A stretch of 64,000 bases of DNA, taken from the NCBI RefSeq assembly GCF_009931435.1, contig NZ_CP043414.1; one strand, given 5' to 3'. Both the position numbers and the translations under genes were made by a program. Shown piece by piece: positions 29,226 through 31,124 of the stretch (its first letter is position 1; each line of letters begins with the position of its first letter). The notes under the pieces are model-generated. The model was not told the origin of the DNA, did no database searches, and saw only the letters and a list, made by a program, of their open reading frames with translations. This DNA comes from Escherichia coli (GTDB lineage: Bacteria > Pseudomonadota > Gammaproteobacteria > Enterobacterales > Enterobacteriaceae).

Positions 29226-31124
29226 TTACATCACCAGACGGCGAATGTCAGACAGCGTGTTGTTAATGATGGTAATGAAACGGGCACCATCAGCACCGTC
29301 GATCACGCGGTGGTCGAAGGAGAGAGAAATCGGCAGCATCAGACGCGGCACGAACTCTTTACCATTCCACACCGGCTCCATCGCGGACTTGGAAACGCCG
29401 AGGATAGCCACTTCCGGCGCGTTCACAATCGGCGCGAAGTGGGTAGTACCCAGGCCGCCGATGCTGGAGATGGTGAAGCAACCGCCCTGCATTTCGCCCG
29501 CAGTCAGCTTACCGTCACGCGCTTTCTTAGAAATAGTCATCAGCTCGCGAGACAGCTCGATGATGCCTTTCTTGTTGACGTCTTTGAATACCGGAACAAC
29601 CAGACCGTTCGGGGTATCCACCGCCACACCGATGTTGATGTATTTCTTCAGGGTCAGACGCTGACCGTCTTCCGACAGAGAACTGTTGAAGCGAGGCATC
29701 TGCTCAAGTGCCGCAGCAACGGCTTTCATGATGAAGACAACTGGGGTTATCTTCACATCCAGCTTACGTTTCGCTGCTTCTTCGTTCTGCTGTTTACGGA
29801 ACGCTTCCAGCTCAGTGATATCGGTTTTGTCGAAGTGAGTAACATGCGGGATCATCACCCAGTTACGGCTCAGGTTCGCACCAGAGATTTTCTGGATGCG
29901 GCCCAGTTCCACCTCTTCGATTTCACCAAACTTGCTGAAGTCCACCTTCGGCCACGGCAGCATGCCAGGGATACCGCCGCCAGTTGCCGCCGGAGCCGCT
30001 TCTGCACGTTTGATCGCTTCTTTCACGTAAGCCTGAACGTCTTCGCGCAGGATCCGACCTTTACGGCCAGTACCCTTCACTTTCGCCAGGTTAACGCCGA
30101 ATTCGCGTGCCAGACGGCGGATCAGCGGAGTCGCGTGAACGTAAGCGTCGTTTTCAGCAAACTCAGATTTGCCTTCTGCTTTCGCAGCCGGTGCTGCTGC
30201 CGGAGTTTCAGCTTTTGCTGCCGGAGCCGGCGCCGGCGCTGCCGCTTCCTGTTTCGCAGGAGCTGCCGCAGGTGCTGCGCCTTCAACTTCGAAGATCATA
30301 ATCAGCGAGCCAGTTTTCACTTTGTCGCCAACGTTGACTTTCAGTTCCTTCACGACGCCAGCAAACGGAGCCGGAACTTCCATAGAAGCTTTATCGCCTT
30401 CTACGGTGATCAGTGACTGCTCAGCGGCAACTTTGTCGCCCACTTTCACCATCACTTCGGTCACTTCAACTTCGTCACCGCCGATATCCGGAACGTTAAC
30501 TTCTTTCACGCCAGCCGCTGGTGCAGGGGCCGCTGCCGGAGCCGCTTCCTGTTTAGCCGCCGGAGCTGCCGCGCCTGCTTCACCCGCGACTTCGAAGACC
30601 ATAATCAGCGAGCCGGTAGACACTTTGTCACCCACGGTCACTTTGATCTCTTTCACGGTGCCTGCAAACGGAGCCGGAACTTCCATAGAAGCCTTGTCGC
30701 CTTCTACGGTGATCAGCGACTGTTCAGCTTCAACTTTGTCGCCCACTTTCACCAGGATTTCGGTCACTTCGACTTCATCGCTGCCGATATCCGGAACATT
30801 TACGTCTTTTGCCGCCGCAGCCGCGGGTGCTGCTGCCGGAGCTGCTTCTTTCTTCTCTTCTGCCTGAGCAGGTGCAGCGTCAGCTGCACCGTCGGCGGAA
30901 TCGAAAATCATAATCAGTGCGCCGGTCTGGGTTTTATCGCCAACAGAGACTTTGATCTCTTTAACGATACCCGCCTGCGGAGACGGTACTTCCATAGAGG
31001 CTTTGTCGCCTTCTACGGTGATCAGCGACTGTTCGGCTTCAACTTTGTCGCCCACTTTGACCAGGATCTCGGTGATTTCAACTTCATCAGCCCCGATGTC
31101 CGGTACTTTGATTTCGATAGCCAT
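29226..31124 (-). CDS. aceF: Dihydrolipoamide acetyltransferase (pyruvate dehydrogenase E2)
   Basis: 632 aa; three tandem lipoyl domains each with [10 protein letters not shown] lipoyl-lysine motif, Ala/Pro-rich linkers, C-terminal catalytic domain. Confidence 0.97.

Follow-up and report, generated by a model that had tools for sequence, protein, structure and literature searches.

Three lipoyl-domain repeats and a two-residue linker duplication in the aceF gene of an Escherichia coli pyruvate dehydrogenase operon

The window, a 64,000-nucleotide stretch of Escherichia coli DNA (contig NZ_CP043414.1 of assembly GCF_009931435.1), carries a canonical pdhR-aceE-aceF-lpdA operon. Open reading frames in the window and near-identical loci place pdhR farther upstream of aceE, with yacH and acnB past lpdA. 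The gene at the centre of this analysis, aceF, encodes the dihydrolipoyllysine-residue acetyltransferase (E2p) and is an intact frame of 632 codons on the minus strand, opening with ATG and containing no internal stops (Table 1). In the list of open reading frames, lpdA begins at a GTG located 21 codons 5′ of the annotated start. The gap between aceF and lpdA is 207 nt in the window (29019-29225), the same length as in NZ_CP070162.1, NZ_AP025682.1, NZ_CP010121.1, and NZ_CP192200.1. In NZ_CP178682.1, NZ_CP010117.1, and NZ_CP074961.1 this interval measures 324 nt, which constitutes a 117-nt indel polymorphism.

Several other features accompany the operon. The pdhR-aceE intergenic region contains a match to the Rfam family tp2 sRNA at 33805-33918, on the plus strand and thus opposite to the operon, which scores 103 bits against a gathering threshold of 50. 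A second small RNA match, at 51455-51544 on the minus strand, is to PssrA (‘plasmid-encoded Shigella sRNA A’; 105 bits, gathering threshold 69) and lies amid chromosomal housekeeping genes. Further matches at gathering level are STnc40 (45740-45808, minus strand) and ES036 (18277-18318, plus strand). Tandem repeats are also found outside the operon. The yacH gene (25777-27522), which encodes a DUF3300 protein, holds a 96-nt tandem repeat at 27154-27385 (plus strand; 2.4 copies, 86% matches) that encodes a 32-residue unit, ...RERIQSASPEQRQAVREKMQTNPQNQQRREAA..., as well as a His/Asp-rich tract, DDDHHHDDDDYHHHDGGH. This in-frame coding repeat may differ in copy number among strains. A 12-nt tandem repeat, AATCCCCTTCTC, occupies 9276-9323 in 4.0 copies with 97% matches.

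Table 1. Features of aceF and its operon in the window, followed by natural two-domain aceF alleles from other E. coli genomes (deletion junctions mapped against K-12).
Feature	Coordinates	Strand	Details
aceF, dihydrolipoyllysine-residue acetyltransferase (E2p)	29226..31124	-	632 aa + stop; ORF, Pfam, PDB 7b9k alignment
aceE (E1p)	31139..33802	-	upstream operon gene, 14 nt before aceF; ORF and annotation of matching loci
lpdA (E3)	27594..29018	-	474 aa from ATG (MSTEIK...), downstream; ORF and near-identical loci
Lipoyl domain 1	30885..31124	-	aa 1-80, Lys41; Pfam, motif
Linker 1	30813..30884	-	aa 81-104, 71% Ala+Pro
Lipoyl domain 2	30576..30812	-	aa 105-183, Lys144; N164T relative to K-12
Linker 2	30510..30575	-	aa 184-205, 77% Ala+Pro
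Lipoyl domain 3	30273..30509	-	aa 206-284, Lys245; 1qjo, 2k7v match
Linker 3	30141..30272	-	aa 285-328 (44 residues), 61% Ala+Pro; A307T relative to K-12
GCGCCG GCGCCG tandem hexamer (Ala-Pro-Ala-Pro)	30228..30239	-	aa 296-299, gene nt 886-897; DNA and protein alignment
Peripheral-subunit (E3/E1) binding domain	30033..30140	-	aa 329-364; PF02817, PDB matches
Catalytic acetyltransferase domain	29229..29975	-	aa 384-632; PF00198, 4n72
Two-domain aceF loci: NZ_CP070162.1, NZ_AP025682.1, NZ_CP178682.1, NZ_CP010117.1, NZ_CP010121.1, NZ_CP192200.1, NZ_CP074961.1	~1401-2990 of each locus		position of aceF
Allele of FDAARGOS_1283			300-nt deletion; 530 aa; junction in shared linker tract, 17 nt
Allele of Rb-50, C2, C4, VTB97379v			303-nt deletion; 529 aa; junction lip2/lip3 at 18-residue-coding stretch, tract of at most 53 nt
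Allele of DSM 103263			306-nt deletion; 528 aa; junction in shared linker tract, 13 nt
Allele of 01_3327, 03_3013			309-nt deletion; 527 aa; junction lip1/lip2 at ASMEVP, 18 nt

The protein displays the sequence features expected of an E2p: a catalytic domain, a peripheral-subunit binding domain, lipoyl domains with a DKA lysine, and the pdhR-aceE-aceF-lpdA context, with homodimeric E1p and E3 encoded alongside. Pfam assigns three copies of PF00364 (Biotin_lipoyl; E 3.9e-67), one PF02817 (E3_binding; aa 329-364, E 1.9e-16), and one PF00198 (2-oxoacid_dh; aa 401-631, E 2.5e-80). The E. coli E2p structure 7b9k aligns over the full length of the protein (E=0), while 4n72 matches the catalytic domain (aa 384-632) and 8oqj, 9h1n, and 4qoy match the binding domain (aa 317-382). 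Lipoyl domain 3 is matched by 1qjo and 2k7v, NMR structures of the innermost E. coli lipoyl domain, and the register with 1qjo (aa 206-284) was used to set the lipoyl domain boundaries. A 12-residue active-site motif of the DHRxxDG type can be read from the translation near the C-terminus. The window analysis yielded no evidence against the identification as aceF.

The most conspicuous property of the gene is a triplicated unit of approximately 300 nt in its 5′ third, on which three separate repeat analyses concur and which is far above chance. A repeat search of the window located 300-nt copies at 30209-30508, 30512-30811, and 30821-31120, spaced 303 and 309 nt from start to start; two of them are 79% and 69% identical to the reference copy. 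TRF describes the same array as 2.7 copies of period 303 (80% matches, score 876). Gapped pairwise identity is 73% between repeats 1 and 2, 80% between repeats 2 and 3, and 71% between repeats 1 and 3; exact matches within these pairs extend to at most 32, 29, and 20 nt, respectively. Each unit encodes one 10-residue lipoyl-lysine motif, found in exactly three places at aa 38-47, 141-150, and 242-251 (30984-31013, 30675-30704, and 30372-30401 in the window), with lysines Lys41, Lys144, and Lys245. The motifs are each followed by an Ala/Pro-rich linker; the combined share of these two residues is 61-77% in the linkers and 13-14% in the lipoyl domains. Open reading frame, repeat searches, Pfam, and PDB matches thus bear out the sequence-only reading, which had described three direct lipoyl repeats of about 300 bp in aceF, and the exact motif positions and linker composition do the same for its description of a threefold lipoyl-lysine motif with trailing linkers. 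In such a modular arrangement, each lipoyl domain would present its DKA lysine as the lipoyl swinging-arm carrier and be followed by a flexible Ala/Pro tether, with the binding and catalytic domains after the last of these. The modules arose by old tandem duplications and have kept 71-80% DNA identity.

This architecture is already known and has stood in textbooks since the 1980s. The triplication of lipoyl domains in the E2p of E. coli (Stephens et al., 1983), their redundancy and deletability in vitro (Guest et al., 1985, J Mol Biol 185:743; Allen et al., 1989), the price that cells pay physiologically for fewer lipoyl domains (Dave et al., 1995, Microbiology 141:1839), and the flexible Ala/Pro linkers are all treated as established in the passages of three later papers that refer to them (PMC8421416, PMC5013485, PMC10579247). 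Passages in two of these (PMC8421416, PMC5013485) also place the number of E2p lipoyl domains between 1 and 3 across taxa, including loss in the reduced genomes of Serratia symbiotica. The E2p of Geobacillus (3duf; one lipoyl domain) and the reduced form from S. symbiotica belong to the same modular family, but at much lower identity to the protein described here. Engineered versions of the E. coli E2p from the Guest laboratory, with one or two lipoyl domains among them, are constructs that make use of the same repeated DNA to remove or add domains, whereas the window holds the wild-type three-domain allele. Machado et al. reportedly built, in 1992, E2p with up to nine lipoyl domains.

Comparison with the 630-residue E2p of K-12 (7b9k, 4n72, 1qjo), which occupies the same operon position and consists of the same three lipoyl domains, binding domain, and catalytic domain, shows DNA identity of approximately 97%. 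The sole difference in length is one indel of 6 nt, or two residues, in linker 3, which joins lipoyl domain 3 to the E3-binding domain. The sequence-only reading had set 632 residues here against 630 for K-12 and had proposed a small variation in linker length; alignment to 7b9k confirms the K-12 figure and traces the variation to linker 3, where the hexamer GCGCCG (Ala-Pro) is tandemly duplicated. That alignment, suggested at the time as a way to locate any indel, placed a single one and left the two lengths unequal. At the DNA level, the window reads GCGGCA-GCGCCG-GCGCCG-GCTCCG and the compared genomes read GCGGCA-GCGCCG-GC(T/A)CCG; these comprised a genome with K-12 coordinates, the closest complete genome, and a 633-residue allele. 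A single GCGCCG is present in both K-12 and the closest complete-genome allele, which is 99.3% identical. Two substitutions, one in lipoyl domain 2 (N164T) and one in linker 3 (A307T), complete the differences from K-12 and leave 628 of 630 aligned residues identical. From this identity to the characterised K-12 protein, lipoylation of Lys41, Lys144, and Lys245 as well as acetyl transfer would be expected.

Two additional residues in DNA of this composition could signal a sequencing or assembly artefact, or a difference in start-codon annotation, in place of a true allele. The insertion sits in GC-rich, low-complexity DNA, where TRF finds a period-6 array (30220-30239), and it is rare: across 5,423 complete RefSeq E. 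coli genomes, a 200-nt query centred on the insertion never recovered it. The top identity was 97.0%, which reflects the 6-nt gap alone, and every match among those listed spans 194 nt. An exact 42-mer across the duplication is likewise absent from all GTDB species-representative genomes. However, start and stop of the window aceF coincide exactly with those of K-12, and the identical 632-residue protein occurs on 174 contigs (189 index blocks) from NCBI and ENA, labelled E. coli or MULTISPECIES. Four independent NCBI assemblies, including the complete 4.93-Mb genome CP041520.1, also match the DNA around aceF with only 2 differences in 7,899 bases. An artefact is therefore extremely improbable, and both it and a start-codon difference were rejected as the cause of the 632-residue length, given the recurrence of the protein and the exact alignment of both ends. 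Because the exact protein recurs on so many contigs, the 632-residue AceF is a real, lineage-restricted minor allele that has already been deposited publicly. [quoted passage not shown]

A 24-kb segment of the window (20000-44000) is about 97% identical to nearly all of 5,425 complete E. coli genomes, and its best match, at 98.5%, is the goat isolate R32_14_1F, in which the match spans approximately 1.35 kb more. The source of the window is therefore a somewhat divergent lineage of Escherichia, one missing from the complete RefSeq E. coli set. In the protein collection searched, AceF proteins of 630-633 residues, that of the window among them, are grouped at 90% identity with AceE proteins of 887 residues from many Enterobacteriaceae, under an 887-residue representative; this AceE-sized cluster reflects the database rather than the genome.

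Replication slippage in the low-complexity GCN-CCN linker DNA would be the most likely source of the duplicated hexamer. It is conceivable that the extra Ala-Pro is adaptive in this lineage and adjusts how far the innermost lipoyl domain reaches or how E1 and E3 are spaced, as the allele has become fixed among a group of closely related assemblies and co-occurs with the lineage-specific N164T and A307T, one of them in the same linker. This is very unlikely, though, as two residues amount to approximately 5% of a 44-residue linker that is 61% Ala and Pro, and fixation in a clonal lineage requires no selection. Tolerance of length change is evident from other in-frame linker alleles in E. coli, of which a 633-residue form (+9 nt in linker 1) and a 626-residue form (-12 nt in linker 3) are each found on at least 1000 contigs; beyond the window, the linkers differ solely through in-frame indels in DNA that codes for Ala and Pro. 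The two additional residues are probably neutral, because linker 3 acts as a long, flexible tether in which other naturally occurring in-frame indels are tolerated, and the difference from K-12 is a trivial, already deposited linker allele.

Whereas the window retains the canonical three units, with no rearrangement of repeat units and with the 6-nt duplication as its only change in length, other genomes differ in domain number. Simply counting coverage of the 930-nt repeat region is blind to such loss, as coverage reaches at least 80% in 5,423 of 5,423 genomes; the count is uninformative because BLAST pieces re-use the remaining repeats. Domain loss was instead sought with a query made only of flanks, 300 nt from the 3′ end of aceE and 300 nt downstream of linker 3, in which pieces within 800 nt are joined and the wild-type gap of 954 nt leaves them unjoined. 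The flanks were joined in 12 of the 5,423 complete E. coli genomes, and in 8 of these 12 exactly one repeat unit had been lost (Table 1). All eight deletions are in register, leave the open reading frame intact, and keep two lipoyl-lysine motifs, with shared tracts of 13-53 nt at their junctions. Two-domain alleles hence account for approximately 0.15% of complete E. coli genomes, a low frequency that fits a rare event and/or counter-selection.

These alleles (527-530 residues; WP_032220595.1, WP_113263570.1, WP_432780853.1, and a 529-residue Salmonella form, P0146) derive from the same repeat system by loss of one unit of about 300 nt. They contain a hybrid of lipoyl domains 1 and 2 or 2 and 3, or have lipoyl domain 1 fused straight to lipoyl domain 3, in contrast to the three units of the window. 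In a collection of 15 billion proteins, the two-domain forms of 527, 529, and 530 residues are found on 454, 182, and 22 contigs, respectively, with further two-domain proteins on 17 and 2 contigs; a cluster of variants of approximately 529 residues has 305 members. Assembly error is possible for individual two-domain genomes, but the presence of these proteins on hundreds of contigs speaks against it. The 527-residue gene of strain 01_3327 (NZ_CP074961.1, 1404-2984) is called a pseudogene by PGAP (‘incomplete; missing N-terminus’). The frame runs uninterrupted from the usual ATG at position 1401 and its protein is the one on 454 contigs, so the label is probably an artefact of annotation that stems from the absent repeat.

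The remaining four joined genomes (strains 463, 447, 439, and 446) represent one hospital clone from Taiwan with a different lesion. An in-frame but out-of-register deletion of 192 nt runs from the VGDKV-coding motif of lipoyl domain 2 to that of lipoyl domain 3, with the junction at GTGGG (strain 463, NZ_CP183105.1, 2001-3701). The resulting AceF of strain 463 has 566 residues, in which the first ~62 residues of lipoyl domain 2 are fused to lipoyl domain 3 from about residue 25; such a chimera is probably unable to adopt the fold of a lipoyl domain.

Gain of a domain was not seen in the complete genomes, as flanks of 700 and 700 nt were joined in all 5,423 under a 1,200-nt joining limit and no four-domain aceF was present. 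A protein-database search with the repeat region, which returned mostly truncated sequences, produced four-domain enterobacterial AceF as fragments only (P0036-P0038), from metagenomic contigs of approximately 1.2-1.7 kb or without contig data. Some of these have exactly duplicated segments, and one (P0037) has a frameshifted tail. They may be genuine domain gains or repeat assembly artefacts, and they are not counted here as natural gain.

The similarity among the repeats could in principle reflect nothing but protein constraint and strong codon bias, with neither gene conversion nor a meaningful substrate for recombination. Relative to expectations from aceE, lpdA, and aceF codon usage, identical codons at identical residues number 39 against 29.6 for lipoyl domains 1 and 2 (z 2.65), 34 against 27.9 for domains 1 and 3 (z 1.75), and 45 against 31.1 for domains 2 and 3 (z 3.77). 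This excess is modest and appears compatible with shared ancestry or occasional conversion. That it is so modest, that the repeats are 20-29% diverged with no identical run beyond 20-32 nt, and that not one complete genome has a four-domain aceF would all suit an explanation by constraint and codon bias. Such an explanation is nevertheless rather unlikely, as it leaves aside the natural in-register deletions of E. coli, with at least four junctions that all fall at shared tracts, and the 529-residue Salmonella allele; the excess between domains 2 and 3 (z = 3.8) also lies above what codon usage predicts.

The repeats do act as substrates for in-register deletion, through recombination or slippage at short shared tracts, as the natural two-domain alleles, with at least four distinct junctions at such tracts, demonstrate. 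RecA-mediated recombination should be inefficient here, since the identical tracts are short (32, 29, and 20 nt) and the repeats 20-29% diverged. The sequence-only reading had considered the repeats long enough for recombination to alter domain number. Support for this comes from elsewhere, in the in-register deletions of 8 among 5,423 genomes, and the same capacity would extend to the window. The limited library of literature searched contained no account of natural recombination, in-frame deletion, or domain-number polymorphism in E. coli aceF.

As a population-level by-product of this analysis, the repeats mediate domain loss in nature, in approximately 0.15% of complete E. coli genomes and through several independent junctions. 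A broader proposal is that lipoyl-domain number and linker length form a standing, recurrent aceF polymorphism in natural Enterobacteriaceae, and that some niches could favour a leaner pyruvate dehydrogenase (PDH) complex. It draws on the four or more junction types in E. coli, the allele on 454 contigs, and the allele in Salmonella, and is at present distinctly improbable; if it were true, the linker allele of the window, with its two additional residues, would be one neutral instance. Some two-domain alleles may endure in successful lineages, although in laboratory studies fewer domains are reported to lower both growth rate and yield. Natural domain loss in aceF could be of interest for work on PDH stoichiometry or on repeat-mediated protein evolution.
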